DNA of 64,000 bases from Candidatus Berkelbacteria bacterium (GTDB lineage: Bacteria > Patescibacteriota > UBA1384 > DTJR01): the NCBI GenBank assembly GCA_026397175.1, contig JAPLVK010000021.1:56989-120988 (forward strand). The letters run 5' to 3'. A program made the position numbers and the translations under genes. Positions 3,609 to 63,647 of this stretch are shown here, piece after piece. Position 1 is the first letter of the stretch. Each line of letters opens with the position of its first letter. The notes beneath the pieces were generated by a model that was given only the letters and a program-made list of their open reading frames with translations, was not told the DNA's origin and made no database searches.

Positions 3609-4871
3609 ATGGGTAAGGTGAAAATTCACAAAGGGTTTATCGGTGCAATTACAGCGGTGGCAGTAATTGCTGTTTTGGCCGGTACGGCTATTCGGCTTCA
3701 GTCAATTTCTGCGGATACCACAACCCCTGACGCTACCGGCAATGGTCTTAAGGGCGAATATTTTAAAACCGTGAGCCCGACCGGAACGCCGGAATTTACA
3801 TGCCTGGTTAAGAAATTAGAATTCAACTGGATAGCGACCCAGCCGACATCAGCTCACGATGGCTGCACGCCTCAAACCGGAGCAGTTGGCATTGATAATT
3901 TCTCTGTTAAATACACGGGACAAGTCCAGCCACAATATAGCGACACCTATACATTTTACGCGCTTACAGATGACGGAGTAAAGGTTTGGGTAAATAGTCA
4001 ATTGATAATTAACACATGGACAAATCAAACCAGTTCCGTCGAGTCAAAAGGTACAATTGCTCTACAGGCGGGTAAAAAATATCCGATAAAAATCGAATAT
4101 TATAATGGTGTCGGAAATGCACAGATGCAACTTTTATGGTCAAACTCCCATTCGCTCACAGCGTTCACTTCTCATCAAGTAAAACAAACTATTCCGCAAA
4201 GTCGGCTTTATACTGACTGGACTCCGCCGTCTGCATCAGCCACTGCTTCGCCGTCTACGACAGTCATGACCGAAACATTTAAAGGTGGGACGCAGGGTGT
4301 AAGCAAATACACGGCGCTTTACTTGCCGGCTGATACCACCGCGATTGCTACAAAACAACTTCAAGATGCCGGTCTCACGGTTTGGGCATTCAACAGAAGG
4401 TATGTTGAGGACTGGAATACTGATATTGTCGGCCTTAATCATGGTGTTGGCTACTATGTCGGGAATCCGTCCGGTGTAGATAAGACAGTTACGGTTAATC
4501 AACAAGTGGCTGAAAGTGCATCCAATATTTATATGCGAAAAGGTTGGAATTTACTGGCCAATAGCTCGACGAAAGCCGTGTCGCTTGCCGACTTGAAGTA
4601 TTATCTTAACCCGACCTGTACCCAAACAACCAATGCAAGCGGAAAAATTGTCAACTCCAATTGCACCGTTGGGGCCTCAACAACCCCGATCAGTGATTTA
4701 TTTCAGGGTACTGATGTAAATGCATATCTGGCCTACACGACAATTTACGAGATAAAAAATCCCGAAGCACAAACCGCAAGTGAGGCCTTTGACCAAGTGA
4801 CTGTTACGGCCAGCAACGCCAGTACTCTGACTATTCCCGCTCAAACGATGTTTTGGTTATATATCTGGTAA
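3609..4871 (+). CDS. N-terminally membrane-anchored surface protein with a PA14 domain and a shared C-terminal 'GYYV-GWNLL-FWxY' domain
   Basis: N-terminal TM helix (GAITAVAVIAVLAGTAI). PA14-like block GLKGEYF…FSVKYTGQ…DDGVKVWVN…YPIKIEYYN. The C-terminus (GYYVGNPSG, GWNLLANSS, FWLYIW) is shared with ORFs 4912, 6180, 8141 and 38306. Confidence 0.7.
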   Translation: MGKVKIHKGFIGAITAVAVIAVLAGTAIRLQSISADTTTPDATGNGLKGEYFKTVSPTGTPEFTCLVKKLEFNWIATQPTSAHDGCTPQTGAVGIDNFSVKYTGQVQPQYSDTYTFYALTDDGVKVWVNSQLIINTWTNQTSSVESKGTIALQAGKKYPIKIEYYNGVGNAQMQLLWSNSHSLTAFTSHQVKQTIPQSRLYTDWTPPSASATASPSTTVMTETFKGGTQGVSKYTALYLPADTTAIATKQLQDAGLTVWAFNRRYVEDWNTDIVGLNHGVGYYVGNPSGVDKTVTVNQQVAESASNIYMRKGWNLLANSSTKAVSLADLKYYLNPTCTQTTNASGKIVNSNCTVGASTTPISDLFQGTDVNAYLAYTTIYEIKNPEAQTASEAFDQVTVTASNASTLTIPAQTMFWLYIW

Positions 4872-4911
4872 ATTTAAATTGGGGGTATTGGACATTATCT
4901 AAAGGAGGACT

Positions 4912-6165
4912 GTGAAAAAAATAGGGCTGCAAAAAACATTTATTTTTGGGATAACGGCGGTTGCTCTTGTGGCGATTGCAACTGGTGCCATTATTCGTTT
5001 GCAGTCAATTTCGGCAAGCACGGACACCGCGAGTGTATCATGCGTTGCCGGCTCAACGGCCGTTCAAACCGATTTAAGCGCCGAAGAAGCAAGTTCTTTT
5101 GGTGCATCCGCCAAGGCCTATACAGTTCATACTACTCAAGGGTGGGGCAGATCTAACGGTGGGGACTTTCGGCTGGTAGTGGCGGCGCAAGAACAAAGTC
5201 GTCTAGGTAGTGGGGGACTTGTGCGATTTACCGTCGCTCTTGGCAATTTGAATAATTTTGTTTATGCGGAAAAAACAGGGAGAATAATCCTAAAATTTTC
5301 CAATAGCCAACAAACCATTTTTGAGTACGGTGATCCCCAGCTTGCAACGGGTAAATATTTGATTAAGCAAGCGAACTGGTCGGTTCTTGACTATTCGGTT
5401 TCCGTTAACGCCGAAATGAGATGGGGAACCGGTAATTATCTTCAGGGCTGTGTTTCAAACGCAATCAATTTGCAAGAGGCCTTAGGATTAGTGCCGACAG
5501 CGACATCAACTGCAACAGCGACTGCGACAACATCCCTAACCGCTTCCGCAACCGCAACAACCGTGTCAACTCAAACTACGCTTGATGTTTTAAGCGGCTA
5601 TAACGCGGTTTATTTACCCGACACTCAAAACGCGCTTTTAACCCAGCAATTAAAAGATGTCGGCATGAGTGTCTTTGAATTTAATCATAAATCGTTGAAA
5701 AGTTGGGACAATGATTCAAATGTCTTTTACCATGGAATTGGCTACTATGTCTATAATCCCGGGGCCGAAACCTCCGTCTTGGTCAATTCAGCCCCACAAA
5801 CTCCAGAGACATATTATGATCGTTATATCCAAAACGGTTGGAATCTTCTCTCGAACGGCTCGACAAGTGATAAAAAATTGAGTGATCTGGTTTATTATGT
5901 TAATAATCTTTGCACGATTGTAAGTGATAAAAATGGCAACCCAACCAGTACTGCCGCTTGCGATAGTTTATTGTCTTACAAATTGTCCGATCTTATAACT
6001 TCTAACGCGCAGACAACCCGCGGATATGCCACCTTGTATATAATCAAAGATCCTCACGGTCAAACGGCAACGGACGCCTTCGAGCAAGTGGATGTTACCG
6101 ACCAGAACAAGGATTCAATCGTGATTCCAGCAGGAAAGTTGTTCTGGTTCTATTTATTTGAATAG
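4912..6165 (+). CDS. Paralogous membrane-anchored surface protein (shared C-terminal domain)
   Basis: N-terminal TM helix almost identical to ORF 3609 (AIIRLQSISA). Contains a TATATAT linker, then GYYVYNPGAETS, GWNLLSNGS and LFWFYLFE. Confidence 0.65.
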   Translation: MKKIGLQKTFIFGITAVALVAIATGAIIRLQSISASTDTASVSCVAGSTAVQTDLSAEEASSFGASAKAYTVHTTQGWGRSNGGDFRLVVAAQEQSRLGSGGLVRFTVALGNLNNFVYAEKTGRIILKFSNSQQTIFEYGDPQLATGKYLIKQANWSVLDYSVSVNAEMRWGTGNYLQGCVSNAINLQEALGLVPTATSTATATATTSLTASATATTVSTQTTLDVLSGYNAVYLPDTQNALLTQQLKDVGMSVFEFNHKSLKSWDNDSNVFYHGIGYYVYNPGAETSVLVNSAPQTPETYYDRYIQNGWNLLSNGSTSDKKLSDLVYYVNNLCTIVSDKNGNPTSTAACDSLLSYKLSDLITSNAQTTRGYATLYIIKDPHGQTATDAFEQVDVTDQNKDSIVIPAGKLFWFYLFE

Positions 6166-6179
6166 TTTAAGGAGAAATT

Positions 6180-7742
6180 TTGGCAAACAGGGCTTCAAAG
6201 ATCTATATTGCCGGACTTGCTGCAATAGTTGTTTCTGTTTTGGGAGTTATCACTCTATCAACGGCGTCTTCTCTTGTGCCGAAGTCATCTTCTAATCTTT
6301 TGGAGTCAATTTGTGACGGTCAAAAATCATTTTATCTGCCTTCAGAGCTCTTAAATTTAGAGAAAAAGAAATATTCAAAAAATGCGCGCGGTTTCAAATT
6401 TATTGATAATAATTATGATAGTTTTAGGATTGTGATTGACTTCGGTCGCGCCTCAAAAGACAACAACGAAATTGAATTCGTTCTTTATTTGACCAATTTA
6501 TCTCAAGAAAAAGTTGATCTTGAAAATCTTGGAATAAAACTTGAATCTTCCGATAAATCCCAAATTACTCTTTCGCCAAATGATAATAATTTAGAGCTCA
6601 TAAAAAATCAGACAAAAGTTTTTAAAGCAAAACAAAATTTACCGAAAGACGATCAGGAAAGTTCAATGTCATATGATCTTATTGTTTCAAACAAAAACAA
6701 TAATGTCTGCACTGGTAAAATTCCCGAAATTGTAAAAATTGAACCGAAAAATCTTGATAATTTCAATGTCTTACAAGCAGACAACTTGGCTGTTTCGTCA
6801 AGGGAATTTGGGGATTTTGAAATTCCACCCGGTTTTAGCCCGATTGGTTTTTCCGATTTTCGACAATTGAAGCCATTTAAAGATAAAGGCCTAACAATTA
6901 TTGGTTATAATCTCAAAGGGCACGAATGGACAATTATTTCCAAAAACAATGATTTTTTGGCCGAACCGGGTGTCGGTTATTTTGTTTTGAATCCAACCGA
7001 AAAGACGATTTTGGTTGATGCCGGATTTCCCTTTTTCACTCCGGACGATATTGCGCGAAATACAGTCCGAAAGGGCTGGAATCTTATCTACAACGATACA
7101 GGAAATAATGCTTCCCCAAAAGAAATTAGTATCTCGATTTATCCGGGTTATAATCAATCGCGGGATTTTGAGGTCTCTTCCTATTCTCTACAGGATCTAA
7201 TTGACAAAAAAATTGCTTCAGGTGATATTTATATCGTTGATCCCGGAGATGCCTCGGTTTTAGGCCGAAAAACCGCACTTTCTTCCTCGACATTTTTAAT
7301 CCCTCAAGATGGTGTTTTCTGGTTTTATTTGTTTGATGAACCGCAAAATCTGGAGTTGAAAGTTCCTAATTTTCAATTTGAACTAACAGGCGGTGGCGAT
7401 ACATATAAATCGGGCGATTTTGTGCCTTTAACATTTAAAATTACCAATAACGATAACAAGTCGCATCAATTGCTTTTACCCGGCATCAAGGATCCCTGTT
7501 TTCTCGGCCTAACTGTTCTTAATTCATCAAACAATGTTGTTTATAATGACTTAGAAAATAAAACATGTCCTTTGTGGCCGTCAATTGTTGAAGTTTCACA
7601 AGGGGCGAAAGAAGAGTATAATTATTCTTGGGCTATACCAAAAAATTTGAAAGGCGATTTTACTTTAAAGGCCTATTTTAATTATTCTCGTCTCAATTCA
7701 TCGAATATGTTATATAATGAAAGTAAGATAAAAGTTGAATGA
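6180..7742 (+). CDS. Paralogous membrane-anchored surface protein (shared C-terminal domain plus extra C-terminal module)
   Basis: TTG start 5 nt after AAGGAG. Motifs GVGYFVLNPTEK, GWNLIYNDTG and VFWFYLFDEP are followed by a roughly 130-aa extension. Confidence 0.6.
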   Translation: MANRASKIYIAGLAAIVVSVLGVITLSTASSLVPKSSSNLLESICDGQKSFYLPSELLNLEKKKYSKNARGFKFIDNNYDSFRIVIDFGRASKDNNEIEFVLYLTNLSQEKVDLENLGIKLESSDKSQITLSPNDNNLELIKNQTKVFKAKQNLPKDDQESSMSYDLIVSNKNNNVCTGKIPEIVKIEPKNLDNFNVLQADNLAVSSREFGDFEIPPGFSPIGFSDFRQLKPFKDKGLTIIGYNLKGHEWTIISKNNDFLAEPGVGYFVLNPTEKTILVDAGFPFFTPDDIARNTVRKGWNLIYNDTGNNASPKEISISIYPGYNQSRDFEVSSYSLQDLIDKKIASGDIYIVDPGDASVLGRKTALSSSTFLIPQDGVFWFYLFDEPQNLELKVPNFQFELTGGGDTYKSGDFVPLTFKITNNDNKSHQLLLPGIKDPCFLGLTVLNSSNNVVYNDLENKTCPLWPSIVEVSQGAKEEYNYSWAIPKNLKGDFTLKAYFNYSRLNSSNMLYNESKIKVE

Positions 7743-42946: not shown

Positions 42947-43087
42947 TATTTTTCCTTTTATCTGACGAAATGATGGTACCATATCTTAATTTGTTTTTCA
43001 AGAATTCATTGCGTAATTTGGGTGTAAACAGATTGACAGCCATGTAATAATCTGCTATCATTTTGTTCTAAGAACCTTGAAAATTAT

Positions 43088-43186
43088 TCTTGAAGCCCCA
43101 GTGGTTATCTTTTTCTTGTCATTGCGAAGAGCTCCGCCAGCCGGCGGAGCGATGTGGCAATCTAAGATGGTCAGCGGGGCTTCAAG
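43088..43186. promoter_or_regulatory. 12-bp inverted repeat (TCTTGAAGCCCC…GGGGCTTCAAGA) enclosing an inner hairpin, at the 5' boundary of the GC-rich DGR target
   Basis: Arms at 43088-43099 and 43175-43186. Inner CTCCGCC-AGCC-GGCGGAG hairpin at about 43131-43148. Confidence 0.45.
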
Positions 43187-43246
43187 AATCCTGAACCCAC
43201 CACCTTGAAAGAAGGAGTGGGCAGGCAATAAAAGGAGGTGCTGACC

Positions 43247-43880
43247 GTGGGTGACACCACGCTCGGCGAAGCGCTCCGGCAGATAGCTGGACCGCTGAAA
43301 GATCTGCACGAGAAGCTGTCTGGTGAGGAAGGGCTTGTGTGGCTGGAGAAGCTGAAGAAGTTTCTTCGCAAGGAGAACCCCTGGGCCGAGGTGCAGAAGG
43401 TGGTTGTGGCTTTGCTCAAGTTCGTCAAGACGGTCGAGCTGCCGGCGGTCGGGGCATTCAAGCCCGAAGATCACTTCAAGGTCACTCCCGAGCGGGAACG
43501 CAAGACCGCCAAGGTGGTCATCGGCTATGTCAGCGATAATGTCAAGGCGCTCATCAAGGGCAGGTTGGAGCCGGAAGAGGCACAGGCCACTATCCGTATT
43601 CACGAACTCTGCCAGGCGTCCGTAGACGACCCGATTCTGGCCGAGCTAGGTGAGAATGTCAAGACGGGGCTCAATCGGATGTTCCAGATAATAGAGGAGC
43701 AAGGCCGTGGCCAAGAGGGCGACCTTCTGGTTGACGGCCGTGCCAACATCTTCTACATCGAGGGTACCGATTGGGCGGTCCTCTGCGACTGGCGCGCCGG
43801 CCCGCGGCTGGAACCTCTACGCCAGTCCGGTCTCTTCTCCGCGCAGTTGGAGCGCTGTCTACCGGGTCTTCTCCCGCTGA
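43247..43880 (+). CDS. DGR target (variable) protein, GC-rich; C-terminal VR. Reading frame disrupted or ambiguous by a 1-nt indel inside the VR
   Basis: GTG at 43247 sits 8 nt after AAAGGAGG. It is in frame with the AAC codons of the TR up to about 43804. After a 1-nt insertion relative to the TR, the TR-equivalent frame reads GWNLYASPVSSPRSWSAVYRVFSR and stops at 43878-43880. The ORF-track frame instead reads through to 43996. Confidence 0.6.
43771..43877 (+). repeat. DGR variable repeat (VR)
   Basis: Aligns to TR 44245-44353 with about 20 mismatches, every one at a TR adenine (A to C/T/G), no non-A substitutions, and a single 1-nt insertion near 43805. A GGGGC-TTTGT-GCCCC hairpin lies 20 nt downstream (43896-43910). 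Confidence 0.85.
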
Positions 43881-44244
43881 TTCTCTGGTATTTTGGGGCT
43901 TTGTGCCCCCTGTATCCGAGCCCCCCTTGTCCCTGTGACCCTTTGAAATCCCGCCTTTGGCGGGAAAGTAGAAGGGTCACTTTTCTGTTAAAATAAAAAT
44001 GAAGTTTGTGAAAGGCAACGGCTAGCCTTCGACCTTGCTCGGGCCAGGCGGCTTTTGCCCACAACTTTAGATTTTTGTTACAGAGAGTTGCTTTGGGTAC
44101 GCCTTGAGCGAGAATGGTTGCAAAAATCTCAAAAAATGAAGAGAATCGGTGCTTCCCATCAAGAGATTTTAGATCTCAATTAATATTCAGCGGAGCGATG
44201 TTGTATTTTGCCCGCAGTGATTATGAACGGCGGGTGGCACAAAC

Positions 44245-44353
44245 TTGGGCGGTCAACTGCAACTGGAACGCCGACAACGGCTGGAACCTCAACGCCAATC
44301 CGATCTCTAATCCGAACAGTTGGAACGCTGACAACCAGGTCTTCTCCCACGAC
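44245..44353 (+). repeat. DGR template repeat (TR), adenine-rich AAC-codon template
   Basis: aac tgc aac tgg aac gcc gac aac ggc tgg aac ctc aac gcc aat ccg … AAC-rich. Matches the VR except at adenines. Confidence 0.85.
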
Positions 44354-44749
44354 TCACTTCTTTTCTTCCGCTTCGGCGGAAGTTTTTGAAATGATTTTCT
44401 TTCTCCAACCACCAGTCATTCTCCCGATATTTTCTATTTCTTTGCCGATCTGGACAAATTGATTATTTGGAATAAGCTTTAGTTCCCAACAGTATTGAAT
44501 AAAAAAACGCAAAGAATCAATATATGACAAAGCGTCTTCGAGCAAGTGCACTTTTTTATTCAGAGGCGAGAATGAAGTTTTTTGAGCAATATCTAAAAGA
44601 TCAATAAAAAGAGAATCAATTTTGTGTCCCAAACCAAAGCGTTCACACTTTGGCATATTGCGCTGAATTTGAATCCAGCTTTTATAAGCATTTTTGATAT
44701 GTTCAATGATAGGTAAAGTGGGGTTATCGTGAAAAGAATTATTAGTCAT
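44354..44749 (-). CDS. avd: Four-helix-bundle protein of the Avd / 23S-rRNA-IVS family (DGR accessory variability determinant-like)
   Basis: KCERFGLGHKIDSLFIDLLDIAQKTSF…YCWELKLIPNNQFVQIGKEIENIGRMTGGW matches the IVS/Avd family pattern. It abuts the TR and diverges from the RT, with a 21-nt overlap of 5' ends. Confidence 0.65.
   Translation of the reverse strand: MTNNSFHDNPTLPIIEHIKNAYKSWIQIQRNMPKCERFGLGHKIDSLFIDLLDIAQKTSFSPLNKKVHLLEDALSYIDSLRFFIQYCWELKLIPNNQFVQIGKEIENIGRMTGGWRKKIISKTSAEAEEKK
44365..44392 (+). terminator. Hairpin plus T-run immediately 3' of TR (CTTCCGC-TTCG-GCGGAAG-TTTTT)
   Basis: Seen in the + strand sequence. Only the + strand has the T-tract. It lies inside the 3' end of the oppositely oriented avd-like ORF. 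Confidence 0.5.
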
Positions 44750-45751
44750 AAATTTGAAGAAATAATCTCAATTAATAATTTGTTTTTAGCATGGCAGGAA
44801 TTTGCTGAAAATAAAAGGAAACGAGCTGATGTACGGGCGTTTTCGCATAATTTGATGGGTAATGTTCTTGCTCTCCATCAGGATCTTAGCAATTTTAGAT
44901 ATCATCATGCAGATTACGAGGAATTTTATATTACCGATCCGAAGCCAAGAGTTATTCACAAAGCAACAGTGCGGGATCGTCTGCTGCATCGTGCGATTTA
45001 TCGGGTTCTCTATCCACTATTTAATTCAACATTTGTCTTTGATAGTTATTCCTGCCGGAAGGAAAAAGGAACGCACAAAGCGTTTAAACGGCTGGTTAAA
45101 ATTGCGAGACAGCAAAGTAAAAATTACTCTGGTTCTTGTTGGGCGTTAAAGTGCGATGTAAAAAAGTTTTTTCATAGCATTGACCATCAGGTTTTGGTTA
45201 ATCTCTTGTCGCAAAGAACTTCCGATGAGCGGCTAATTAATTTACTCAAAGAAATTATTGAAAGTTTTGCGGTTTGCGGGCGGAACGCAAACCTAAACAA
45301 TAAAAAAGGAATACCCCTCGGAAATTTGACTTCACAATTATTTGCCAATATTTACATGGACCCGCTTGATAAATTTGTCAAACACAAACTTAAAGCCAAA
45401 TATTATCTGCGATACGCTGACGATTTTATGATCTTAGCCAAAAATTCTGAAGTTTTACGAGATTATTTACAAGAAATTGATCATTTCTTAACCAATCATC
45501 TTAAACTTTCGCTTCATCCCGACAAAATCACTTTTCGCAAACTGAACTGGGGCTTGGATTTTGTCGGCTATGTTACATATCCAAAATTCAATTTGCCGAG
45601 ACCGAAAACTGTCGAAAGAATGTTTAGAAATCTTGAAGAAATAAAGAGAAATAGACCCGAGAAATTAAATAAAAGTTTGCAGTCATATCTTGGTTATCTT
45701 GAACATGTAGATGCCAAAGCAATTTCTGATTATTTGAAATTGCTTTATTAA
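44729..45751 (+). CDS. DGR reverse transcriptase (RT domains only, 340 aa)
   Basis: N-terminal NLFLAWQEFAENKRKR…YEEFYITDPKPRVIHKATVRDRLLHRAIY. RT motif C is RYADDFMIL. No maturase or endonuclease domain. GTG start. Confidence 0.85.
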   Translation: MKRIISHKFEEIISINNLFLAWQEFAENKRKRADVRAFSHNLMGNVLALHQDLSNFRYHHADYEEFYITDPKPRVIHKATVRDRLLHRAIYRVLYPLFNSTFVFDSYSCRKEKGTHKAFKRLVKIARQQSKNYSGSCWALKCDVKKFFHSIDHQVLVNLLSQRTSDERLINLLKEIIESFAVCGRNANLNNKKGIPLGNLTSQLFANIYMDPLDKFVKHKLKAKYYLRYADDFMILAKNSEVLRDYLQEIDHFLTNHLKLSLHPDKITFRKLNWGLDFVGYVTYPKFNLPRPKTVERMFRNLEEIKRNRPEKLNKSLQSYLGYLEHVDAKAISDYLKLLY

Positions 45752-60858: not shown

Positions 60859-61312
60859 TTGGAGGCAATTTGGCTTACAATTTTTGACATTAGATAGAAC
60901 ATAAAGCAGAGCAAGCCCAGCTTTCTGCTGGGCTATTATAGTCAAAAAAAACCAAAAGCCCTGAAATTTGACAAATGGATTTCCTGTTAACCCATTAGAC
61001 CTGGGAGCATTTAAATATGCATTAACGGGAAAAATCATCGGTTTGACAAAACCAGATGAGGAAGTGTTGAGGACACTTTACAGAAAAAATCCTCGTCAAT
61101 TCAAATTGAATTAAAGAGCCAGAATTGCTTTCAAGGCAATTCACTCAAATTCTTTACTAAGAGTTTGATCCTGGCTCAGGATGAACGCTAGCGGTGTACC
61201 TAAAACATGCAAGTCGTACGCTTGTAAAAGCGTGGCGAACGGGTGAGTAACGCGTGGGAATCTGCCTCAATCCGGGAAATACCTTGCCGAAAGGTGAGTT
61301 AATGTCCCATGA

Positions 61313-61739
61313 GATGGTAGCTAGTCATTGGTAGTTAGTTACTGGTAAAATGAGTTCATGATTTATAATGGACTCGATGTCTATAAACGAGCATACAAGT
61401 TGGCAATAGAAATACATAAGTTCTCCTTAGAACTTCCAAGATATTTACATAATGATATCGGAAGTCAAATAAGAAGATCCTCAAGATCGATTCCTTCTCA
61501 AATAGCAGAAGGTTTCTCTAGAAATAAATCAGATAAAGACAAGAAAAATTTCTTAAGAGATGCTCTTGGCTCAAACGAAGAAATGCTCTTCAATCTCAAG
61601 TTTATGAGAGATACGGATCTTATAAATTTAGAGAAGTATGAGTATTTCTTTAGCGAGTATGTTATCTGCGGAAAGCAGCTAATGAACTTGATGAAAAGTA
61701 TAGATACCAGAAACTAGCGACTAGCGACTAGTTACCATC
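61313..61739 (+). other. Intervening sequence (IVS) in 16S rRNA: 14-bp extended stem (GATGGTAGCTAGTC / GACTAGTTACCATC) closing a roughly 400-nt loop that encodes a protein
   Basis: The stem halves lie at 61313-61326 and 61726-61739. Flanking rRNA sequence is continuous with the conserved 16S 5' domain. Confidence 0.65.
61358..61717 (+). CDS. Four-helix-bundle protein of the rRNA-IVS family, encoded inside the 16S IVS
   Basis: YKRAYKLAIEIHKFSLELPRYLHNDIGSQIRRSSRSIPSQIAEGFSR is the family signature (…GLxSQIRRAAVSIPxNIAEG…). Same family as the Avd-like ORF at 44354-44749. Confidence 0.7.
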   Translation: MIYNGLDVYKRAYKLAIEIHKFSLELPRYLHNDIGSQIRRSSRSIPSQIAEGFSRNKSDKDKKNFLRDALGSNEEMLFNLKFMRDTDLINLEKYEYFFSEYVICGKQLMNLMKSIDTRN

Positions 61740-62279
61740 AAAGCTCCGGCGGATTGAGAGGAGCCTGCGTCCTATCAGCTTGTTGGTGGGGTAAAAGCCT
61801 ACCAAGGCAACGACGGGTAGCTGGTCTGAGAGGATGGTCAGCCACAATGGGACTGAGACACGGCCCATACACCTACGGGTGGCAGCAGTTAGGAATCGTA
61901 CACAATGGGGGAAACCCTGATGTCGTGACACCGCGTGAAGGATGAAGGTTTTCGGATCGTAAACTTCTTTTCTATGGGAGGATTATGACTTAACCATAGG
62001 AATAAGCATCGGCTAACTACGTGCCAGAAGCCTCGGTAATACGTAGGATGCGAGCGTTATCCGGTCTTATTGGGCGTAAAGAGCGCGTAGGCGGCCCGGC
62101 AAGTCCAATCTTAAATCCCATGGCTCAACCATGGAGCTGGATTGGATACTACCTGGCTTGAACACTTGCAGGGGTATGCGGAATCTACGGTGTAGGAGTA
62201 AAATCCATTGATATCGTAGAGAACACCAATGGCGAAGGCAGCTTGCTAGGCATTCACTGACGCTGAGGCGCGAAAGCGT

Positions 62280-62313
<34 letters not shown>

Positions 62314-62816
62314 ACGCCGTAAACGATGCGGACTAGGTATTGGGATCATCGACCGTCCTTGTACCAAAGCAAACGCGTTAAGTCCGCCGCCTGGGGAGTA
62401 CGAGCGCAAGCTTAAAACTCAAAGGAATTGGCGGGGGCTCGCACAAGCGGTGGAACATGTGGTTTAATTCGACAGTAAGCGGAGCACCTCACCAAGGTTT
62501 GACATCTATGGAATCCTGATGAAAGTCGGGAGTGCCCGCAAGGGAGCCGTAAGACAGGTGCTGCACGGTCGTCGTCAGCTCGCGGCATGAGCTGTTCCGT
62601 TAACTCGGGACACGAGCGCAACCCCGATCGTCTGTTAAATTTCCACACGTGTTACAATGGCCGGTACAGAGGGTTGCAATATCGCGAGATGGAGCTAATC
62701 CCTAAAGCCGGTCCCAGTTCGGATTGGAGTCTGAAACTCGACTACATGCAGTCGGAATTGCTAGTAACCGTAGATCAGAACGATCCGGTGAATACGTCCT
62801 CGAGCCTTGCACACAA

Positions 62817-63647
62817 ATGTAAAGACGCATGGCAGTTTGATTAACTAAGTCGTGGAAATCGACTCCTCCGATACGCCATCGGAGCGTAGCTTAAAGCAGG
62901 TCCAACCTCGTGAGAGATGGACTAGAGGGCTAAATGGCAATTTGCAGCGGGCAGGCGAAAACCTGTACTGACTTATGTTAGGCGGTTGTGGCCTAGGGAA
63001 AGTACAATAAAAAGGTTGCTCGATGTAGAAAATAGCTAATCAAATGATCCATGGAGATCTTGCCTATGATAACGCAAACAAGGGCAAGAAGTCAGCCTGT
63101 TCATAGTAGACGCTGTGGTATAATGTATTTACCATGACGCAGCGTCAAAGGGACAGACCTAAGATTCTGTCACCAGAATATCTAGTCGGCTTAACTGATG
63201 GCGAAGGTTGCTTTTATGTTAACATTCGCCCGCCGCGATCAAAAAATGGCTTGCCTCAAGTAGAATTTCATTTCTACATTAAGTTAAGAGGCGACCACTT
63301 GGATCTTCTAAAAAAAGTCCAAAAATCTTTTGGTTGCGGAGCAGTGTATCGCCAAGCCGAGAAGCGAGCAAATCATAGCGAATGCTATCGGTTTGAAATA
63401 AACTCGCGAAAAGATATAAATCGTGTACTAGTACCGTTTTTCTTGCACTATCCCTTGCAGGGTCCGAAATCAAATGATTTTGCGACCTTCTGTAAAATTT
63501 TCAACCTTGTTTTGCAAGGTGAGAATAGTACAGAAAAGGGACTAGTTAAAATTAAACGGTTGAAAGAAAAAATGAATCTTGGGGCCCGCCGAGTGTGGAA
63601 AATCCGCTTGCTCGGTGGCAACGTGAAGTAGCGTTAACTATCACAAT
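62817..63647 (+). mobile_element. Insertion of 831 nt (probable intron) in 16S between …CCTTGCACACA and CCGCCCGTCA… (E. coli position about 1400), carrying a LAGLIDADG homing endonuclease
   Basis: Conserved 16S sequence breaks at 62816 and resumes at 63648. Insertions at this site with homing endonuclease ORFs are known in CPR 16S genes. Confidence 0.65.
63134..63631 (+). CDS. LAGLIDADG-family homing endonuclease (single-motif, 165 aa)
   Basis: YLVGLTDGEGCFYVNI is the LAGLIDADG motif. The size resembles I-CreI-type homodimeric enzymes. Confidence 0.75.
   Translation: MTQRQRDRPKILSPEYLVGLTDGEGCFYVNIRPPRSKNGLPQVEFHFYIKLRGDHLDLLKKVQKSFGCGAVYRQAEKRANHSECYRFEINSRKDINRVLVPFFLHYPLQGPKSNDFATFCKIFNLVLQGENSTEKGLVKIKRLKEKMNLGARRVWKIRLLGGNVK

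Follow-up and report, generated by a model that had tools for sequence, protein, structure and literature searches.

A CPR-type diversity-generating retroelement with a frameshifted variable region in a Candidatus Berkelbacteria genome

We analysed a stretch of 64,000 nt from contig JAPLVK010000021.1 (GCA_026397175.1), part of a metagenome-assembled genome (MAG) of Candidatus Berkelbacteria and hereafter called the window, and found that it carries, between rpmE and rpsB, a genuine diversity-generating retroelement (DGR) of the type known from bacteria of the candidate phyla radiation (CPR). The cassette is arranged in the order target gene with its variable region (VR), spacer, template repeat (TR), avd (accessory variability determinant) on the opposite strand and the gene of the reverse transcriptase (RT). 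An initial annotation of this DNA had called a complete DGR with these four components, and the central call was right on every testable feature. Its completeness is doubtful, because the VR is frameshifted, and this frameshift is fixed throughout the assemblies of the lineage. The layout is standard for CPR bacteria and what is notable is this frameshift within the variable region of the target, while evidence of present activity is none in this lineage. Taken as a whole, it is very probable in our view that 43033-45751 is a chromosomal CPR-type DGR of architecture B3, for which a mechanism is proposed below.

The repeat pair carries the identification. In a local alignment with one gap, TR and VR differed by 20 mismatches, all of which fell on TR adenines (20/28 adenines altered), and no C, G or T position of the TR was changed in the VR. 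With 28 A among 106 TR positions, the hypergeometric probability of placing all 20 mismatches on adenines is ~1.6e-15, so that an ordinary decayed duplication was excluded as the origin of the pair. The adenine-only substitutions, about 20 in number, had been claimed before and were borne out by this re-alignment; an ungapped alignment fails, since the VR holds one extra base in 43799-43803 that had been overlooked, and the homology stops at 44350, not at 44353. The substitutions all fall within TR 44255-44349 and the last A-to-N position is 44349. The TR reading frame, WAVNCNWNADNGWNLNANPISNPNSWNADNQVFSH, contains nine AAC and two AAT codons, in agreement with the AAC-packed TR described earlier. 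We found neither a second VR beyond 43771-43877 nor a paralogue of the target in the window. JGI metagenome contigs were scanned for further VR alleles or copies by means of the TR pattern (A -> N), with 0 hits.

Both proteins are of the DGR type, as had been proposed. The best solved relative of the RT was the 328-aa RT of PDB entry 8ub7 (entries 8ub7-8ube; E 4.7e-39), which we take, from its sequence, to be the bRT of a Bordetella phage; the alignment runs from residue 9 in both proteins to 332/315 and places LGNLTSQLFAN opposite IGSLTSQLFAN. Other solved RTs were weaker, with 4e-23 for a group II intron RT and 9e-18 for a retron RT. The [LIV]GxxxSQ fingers motif (LGNLTSQ) and YADD could be read directly from the sequence, and about 8000 relatives of the RT were mostly from CPR bacteria. 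The N-terminal register equals that of the 8ub7 RT. This favours GTG 44729 as the start codon and with it a 21-nt overlap between the 5' ends of the RT gene and avd (avd start at 44749); the 340-aa RT with RYADDFMIL and its overlap with an opposite-strand avd, as first described, were confirmed. The avd product matched NCBIfam NF033474 DivGenRetAVD over its full length (E 3e-17, 62.8 bits, cut-off 80), PHROG 3206 "Avd protein of DGR" (E 3e-18) and Pfam PF22296 bAvd (E 7e-10, 39.8 bits, cut-off 40), confirming the Avd gene annotated at 44354-44749; a PDB sequence search with it returned nothing meaningful.

The VR forms the last 36 codons of the reading frame of the target family, and the window copy is frameshifted inside it by the one extra base in 43799-43803. 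Deleting any one base of this run leaves 20 mismatches, all at A. The open reading frame (ORF) as assembled keeps to the AAC frame for no more than 28 nt of the VR and then runs into an unrelated tail to 43996; downstream of the insertion, the AAC frame belongs to a different ORF with its stop TGA at 43878-43880. Fourteen homologues of the target, 207-226 aa long, have the C-terminus QV[FVI]SR and the corrected window reading ends in ...SWSAVYRVFSR, indicating that the normal end of the family is 43880 and that the window copy is shifted. Its shifted C-terminus is without the invariant W205 and without the conserved end. The exact 249-aa product was present on independently assembled Logan contigs from six runs (ERR15302213, -196, -223, -191, -169 and SRR20698651), and the contigs that we fetched were 100% identical to the window across 43061-44188 or 43061-44400. 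The NCBI MAG carries the same frameshifted allele, which makes seven assemblies in all, and the assembled target protein is 99% identical to an NCBI entry. The occurrence of the same allele in six Logan assemblies and the MAG indicates that the frameshift is real, and an assembly artefact as its cause was rejected. TR and VR differ in length in 7% of DGRs, with 11/25 of these differences frameshifting and most located next to AAC, and frameshifting indels were counted in 11/372 DGRs (Wu et al., 2018; PMC5758913). The window insertion adjoins GAC AAC, the context of most TR/VR indels in that study. As a separate observation on the Logan contigs, four of them end at 44188 and three start at 44159-44162, with both flanks identical to the window; assemblies of different runs thus break within the same ~30 nt (44159-44188), at the P2 hairpin described below.

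A search with the window RT yielded 80 loci in species-representative genomes, almost exclusively of Patescibacteria, and a self-BLAST screen of the window together with 86 loci (87 sequences) found an A-biased TR/VR pair in 59. An Avd homologue lay on the minus strand between TR and RT in 57 of these 59 loci; the TR ended ~380-550 nt before the RT start, the VR usually lay ~450-600 nt before the TR, and overlapping avd/RT starts recurred in several loci. The initial annotation had considered such a layout atypical. However, it is standard: TR-(avd)-RT with avd on the reverse strand is architecture B3, which makes up 90% of the CPR set of Wu et al. (2018). In the classification of Roux et al. 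(2021; PMC8144416) these CPR B3 DGRs form clade 2, whose targets are typically without transmembrane or other recognisable domains, and the earlier remark on a small target without signal peptide agrees with this. The window cassette shares with them the gene order, an upstream target gene that has the same orientation as the RT and encodes a small protein lacking recognisable domains, a signal peptide and transmembrane segments, an AAC-rich TR, the Patescibacteria host and a frameshifting indel beside AAC; we saw no difference in layout, and the window target family could be assigned to none of the UVR classes of Wu et al. (2018). In another MAG, locus L001, located between glycosyltransferase genes, has the same target family in the same layout with its own A-biased TR/VR pair; its different genomic context indicates that the cassette moves as a unit. 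The first survey of CPR DGRs is reportedly that of Paul et al. 2017.

Diversification was observed between two assemblies of one sister cassette of the family, L098 (GCA_038216025.1) and L099 (SRR19962012), in which avd is also on the minus strand. Over 2223 nt aligned they differed at 13 positions, and 13/13 were in the VR (L098 894-1005); 12 of these correspond to adenines of the TR, the remaining one to a thymine. The RT ORF of L098, as called, is only 219 aa long and ends in an ERERER run, and may itself be disrupted.

The window and L001 resemble each other more closely in the ~110 nt preceding the TR than in their proteins. When the 59 loci were aligned by sequence alone with MAFFT, RNAalifold gave 16 pairs in two helices, P1 and P3 (Table 1), and 15/16 showed compensatory changes. 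The alignment cells of P1 and P3 were paired in 86.4%, compared with 56% in shuffled alignments and 43-50% with slid partners, and their covariation score was 0.82 vs 0.28; the P2 region folded better than shuffles (mean z -1.97). A covariance model matched 62 sites in 687 kb. Each locus had a single site, invariably on the strand of the RT and just upstream of the TR, and 8/62 were in loci absent from model building. The only match in the window with E < 0.1 was 44122-44256 (78.9 bits), and Rfam, searched with gathering and E-value thresholds, had no match in the cassette, nor a group II intron. A long-range duplex, P0, would connect the 5' strand of this domain with the 3' end of the TR. It forms 9/11 pairs in the window and 10/11 in L019 and L020; the energy of the cognate duplex was -12.6 vs -10.1 kcal/mol for non-cognate strands, with 0/5000 permutations as low, the mean z against shuffles was -1.76 (control segment +0.22), and 76.4% of alignment cells were paired vs 62.8% shuffled and 30-52% slid. 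Pair 18-56 was GC in 23 sequences and CG in 19, and A44144, U44146 and U44150 were invariant among 61 sequences. Both the structured RNA upstream of the TR and its long-range pairing with the TR 3' end are thus supported by covariation over ~50-60 loci. Furthermore, the second P1 strand (P1b) and P0b mark out an interval that the TR homology (44245-44350), with all 20 substitutions, occupies exactly: the homology begins 6 nt past P1b and the last A-to-N position abuts P0b. The predicted template is 44239-44349, the exact stretch between the two helices.

A terminator, on the + strand only, had also been annotated just after the TR. The hairpin and its T-run exist on that strand and look terminator-like there only, but another reading suits them better. 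A hairpin with U-run follows the TR by 4-23 nt in 37/59 loci, with differing stem sequences; our terminator scan returned ~3 such sites per 3 kb of shuffled sequence (both strands), so that ~4 would be expected over 59 flanks. Avd-binding stem-loops have been predicted "just downstream of TR" in 207/278 DGRs, CPR included, and often have 9 bp and tetraloops (Handa et al., bioRxiv 10.1101/2023.10.23.563531). By its position and UNCG loop, the stem-loop at 44365-44387 is better read as the predicted Avd-binding one. The analysis of Handa et al. took in only 40 nt upstream of each TR, and in the CPR DGR literature compared, to which Paul et al. 2017 and the published version of Handa et al. did not belong, we found no mention of the RNA domain 5' of the TR or of the P0 duplex.

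Table 1. Positions of cassette features in the window
Feature	Position	Strand	Remarks
Promoter-like site	43033-43061	+	TTGACA-17 nt-(TG)TATCAT upstream of target gene; consensus match only
Structured 5' leader of target mRNA	43086-43221	+	long hairpin 43086-43189 and second hairpin 43196-43221
Target ORF as assembled	43238/43247-43996	+	249 aa; shifted after insertion
Target (variable protein) gene	43247-43880	+	GTG start 7 nt after AGGAGG; in-frame stop TGA 43878-43880
VR	43771-43877	+	107 nt; 20 substitutions vs TR and 1-nt insertion
G/C run with 1-nt insertion vs TR	43799-43803	+	opposite TR GCC|GAC AAC
GC hairpin GGGGC-TTTGT-GCCCC	43895-43909	+	downstream of VR
P0a GAAGAGAAUCG	44138-44148	+	purine-rich, proposed primer strand; pairs with 44350-44360
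2-nt linker, G44149 and invariant U44150	44149-44150	+	between P0a and P1a
P1	44151-44160 with 44229-44238	+	covariation
Junction AGUGAUUAUGAAC	within 44151-44238 domain	+	
P2 hairpin	44163-44177	+	folds better than shuffles
A-rich junction	44178-44189	+	consensus CGAAUAAAAUWCAG
P3	44190-44194 with 44211-44215	+	covariation
TR	44245-44350	+	106 nt, 28 adenines
P0b CGACUCACUUC	44350-44360	+	strand at TR 3' end; pairs with P0a
avd	44354-44749	-	131 aa
Stem-loop CUUCCGC-UUCG-GCGGAAG and UUUUU	44365-44387 (hairpin 44365-44382)	+	within avd 3' end (other strand)
DGR RT	44729-45751	+	340 aa, GTG start, RYADDFMIL; PF00078 E 1e-27

A further system for comparison is the DGR of Bordetella phage BPP-1 (mtd-avd-TR-brt), of which the bRT-Avd-RNA complex was solved (Handa et al.; PDB 8ub7 series by sequence match). 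The two have in common a full-length RT alignment including the fingers motif, an Avd homologue, the adenine-specific transfer from TR to VR at the 3' end of a protein that in the window is putatively C-type-lectin-like, and a stem-loop immediately after the TR. The Bordetella complex has a duplex of Sp47-56 and TR117-129, with A56 as the priming nucleotide; after 2 nt, Sp59-70 pairs with avd369-379 just upstream of the TR, which is looped out between the duplexes, and the Sp strand continues with a short stem-loop, unpaired adenosines, a "thumb ring" and a bRT-binding stem-loop (Handa et al., bioRxiv 10.1101/2023.10.23.563531). Compensatory changes in the avd:Sp duplex of Bordetella failed to bring back synthesis. 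On one strand of the window the succession is P0a, 2 nt, P1a, the short hairpin P2, an A-rich junction and P3; the geometry of P0a, 2 nt and P1a with the TR looped out equals that seen by cryo-electron microscopy. Both systems therefore have two adjacent duplexes ~2 nt apart on one strand, then a short stem-loop and, beyond a single-stranded stretch rich in adenosines, a longer one. However, in the window avd is inverted and abuts the TR, the proposed primer/stop strand and stem-loops are 5' of the TR and not in a 3' spacer, the presumed stop duplex P1 is formed wholly of upstream sequence, a conserved hairpin after the VR is missing from this type, and the element is chromosomal, not phage-borne. 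It is an evenly balanced proposition that the RNA of CPR-type (B3) DGRs is a circular permutation of the Bordetella RNA, in which the primer/stop strand and protein-binding stem-loops would precede the TR (44138-44238) and the Avd stem-loop alone would follow it, with the TR, in a retron-like topology, exactly the loop between P1 and P0. The likeness to retron msr/msd is one of topology only: a 5' strand pairing with the template 3' end, a priming nucleotide, stem-loops and the template. In contrast to a retron, the window RT is not of the retron clade (66.7 bits with NF038233, cut-off 235), Avd and a VR target are present, and the product is presumably integrated rather than kept as multicopy single-stranded DNA (msDNA).

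Drawing on the Bordetella paradigm and on the covariation found here, we propose that RT and Avd would bind a + strand RNA carrying the 44138-44238 domain, the TR and the stem-loop 44365-44382. By analogy, P0 would act as the template:primer duplex and P1 as the stop. The P0 duplex would position the TR 3' end in the active site, cDNA would be primed in cis at the P0a/P1a junction, and copying would proceed from 44349 back to ~44239 with misincorporation opposite adenines until it stops at helix P1. Thereafter, the cDNA would replace the VR in the gene of a small protein of cytoplasmic appearance, whose C-terminal domain would be C-type-lectin-like. The last VR allele recorded for the lineage has the 1-nt insertion beside an AAC codon that frameshifts the target, and it is the sole allele in all assemblies.

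Several points weigh against a DGR working in this way in the window. The scores of the Avd fall slightly below curated cut-offs, although the matches are full length. P0 has two mismatches in its 11 pairs and P1 has two non-pairs, and the helix roles were assigned by analogy to a single solved complex. The cassette scan found no promoter-like site for a separate TR RNA, whose ends are presumed. Finally, no VR variants of the lineage were found among the seven assemblies or in a collection of 15 billion proteins, where the 90%-identity cluster of the window target has a single member; without such variation current activity is unproven, and the target may be a pseudogene. This leads to the alternative that survives best, namely a decaying or silent DGR with a target pseudogenised by the VR frameshift, in which RT, avd and TR persist only for lack of erosion time. 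We consider it a real possibility, though one below an even chance. The frameshift is fixed, successful homing would replace the VR and restore the frame and no such event is recorded, and the shifted protein has lost both W205 and the conserved end. However, RT and avd retain intact ORFs, TR and RNA domain are likewise intact, and DGRs that otherwise function are known to produce frameshifting indels beside AAC (Wu et al., 2018). Furthermore, the assemblies of the window lineage are 100% identical over 1.1-1.3 kb, indicating a clonal sampled population, so that the missing variants say little on the rate.

Far less probable, and already largely refuted, is a target gene that in reality is in frame, its frameshift being an artefact that assembly or consensus calling made from a heterogeneous VR. 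Coexistence of many alleles makes a VR difficult to assemble, and the insertion sits in a G/C run, but the same product and identical DNA came from six runs in two accession series and from the assembly of the MAG authors. A reading as group II intron RT or retron RT, with a TR/VR likeness left by ordinary duplication, has next to no probability and is refuted: the best NCBIfam match is the group II intron RT/maturase model TIGR04416 (because the library is without a DGR RT model) and the proposed RNA topology resembles msr/msd, but TIGR04416 gave 149.5 bits against a cut-off of 300, the 8ub7 RT leads the other solved relatives by 16 orders of magnitude, no intron RNA and no maturase or endonuclease domain was found, a DGR-specific Avd is present, and 20/20 adenine mismatches are impossible from ordinary divergence. 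We thus retain the reading of a CPR-type DGR. Its repeat pair with the adenine bias, the identities of RT and Avd, the reproducible frameshift, the covarying RNA helices and the diversification of a sister cassette are observed, whereas helix roles, priming site, transcript ends and any present activity of the window copy are inferred.

The hairpin downstream of the VR had been associated with the initiation of mutagenic homing (IMH) site. It exists on the + strand, but not as a conserved IMH element: a comparable GC hairpin followed the VR in 12/59 related loci, compared with 105/560 (19%) control windows from equally GC-rich target ORFs, and the closest relative, L001, had none. It was rejected as a conserved element and is probably not functional. 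GC-rich inverted repeats after the IMH were reported in only 34% of DGRs (Wu et al., 2018). The TR and VR copies share GGTCTTCTCCC and then diverge (GCTGATTCTC vs ACGACTCACT).

The GC-rich target, already pointed out in the initial annotation, was found to be part of a wider pattern. The window target has ~60% GC, compared with ~35% for RT/avd and 41% for the window (40.8%), and without the VR the targets of the window and L001 have ~58-60% with RT/avd at 35-38%. Our survey took in window 43090-43990, the target ORFs of L001 and L007-L086, L004 5001-6484 and L005 5001-5675. Over the 59 loci, mean GC was 0.519 for targets, 0.364 for RTs and 0.416 for the rest of the locus; the target exceeded the RT in 59/59 loci and the flanks in 56/59, and the excess ended at the ORF boundary. 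GC at third codon positions (GC3) was 0.596 in targets vs 0.360 in RTs, and clade-wide, targets with GC3 of ~0.6-0.78 lie inside genomes or cassettes of ~0.3-0.45. A contig chimaera was rejected as the cause of the GC jump, since the same junctions occur in L001 and many other loci, and amino-acid composition was rejected since the effect is in GC3. Adenine-specific erosion was not supported, A and T at third positions being both depleted. Adjacency to the RT was not the cause either, as orphan members of the target family with no RT nearby are equally GC-rich (GC3 0.75-0.78, neighbours 0.27-0.51), nor is the excess a family-specific trait, for 51 targets without detectable homology to the window family have it as well. 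Wu et al. (2018) treat only the GC of whole DGRs vs the host, and we found no discussion of GC-rich DGR targets in the CPR DGR literature compared, which did not include Paul et al. 2017.

The target family comprised 17 proteins. The window target had no match in Pfam, NCBIfam or PHROGs, and a Foldseek search of PDB with its model gave nothing below E 0.5. Two proteins of 238 aa, P0016 and P0017, are 70-83% identical to the family over their first ~45 residues, unrelated in the central part and end in RQVVSV, which suggests a shared N-terminal module on differing variable proteins. In L004, tandem paralogues of the family (5001-5648 and 5807-6484) lie inside the dcw cluster, between genes for a penicillin-binding protein and a Mur ligase, and no RT, avd or TR was found within 5 kb on either side. 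The promoter-like site upstream of the window target has 11/12 consensus matches and an extended -10 TG; comparable TTGACA/TATCAT-like boxes occur at the same position upstream of family members in L004 and L005. The 5' leader was compared, like the promoter, with L004 ~4810-5000, L005 ~4830-5000 and L001 ~5800-6000. Its long hairpin is an inverted repeat with 26-nt arms, 81% complementary, and the arms (UUCUUGAAGCCCCAGUGG.../...GCGGGGCUUCAAGAA) are near-invariant in the first L004 paralogue (L004a) and L005, the 3' arm also in L001. The second hairpin, before the ribosome-binding site, covaries (CCCAC/GUGGG vs CCCAUU/AAUGGG). The 12-nt repeat GCGGAGCGATGT, with copies at 43144 and 44190, is no more than chance would yield in 3 kb.

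Core genes surround the cassette, with prmC, prfA and rpmE upstream and rpsB, tsf and pyrH downstream. The window also contains a bacterial 16S rRNA gene (61153-62851), whose 1699 nt exceed the 1533-position model by ~165 nt of insertions. Insertions in rRNA genes of CPR bacteria have been reported previously.

As a DGR, the cassette adds one further CPR example and a small unannotated target family, which by itself is ordinary, for specialists too; the comparative by-products, namely the clade-wide RNA model and the GC-rich targets, matter more than the cassette itself. For the commonest CPR architecture, the RNA model pinpoints the nucleotides to mutate (P0, the 2-nt linker, P1, A44144, U44146 and U44150) and allows testing the generality of a priming/stop geometry known from one phage complex. 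The covariance model could improve DGR finders, as it marks TRs even when the VR is off the contig. The GC-rich targets, if confirmed outside the clade, would indicate that DGR targets are subject to some selective or mutational force.

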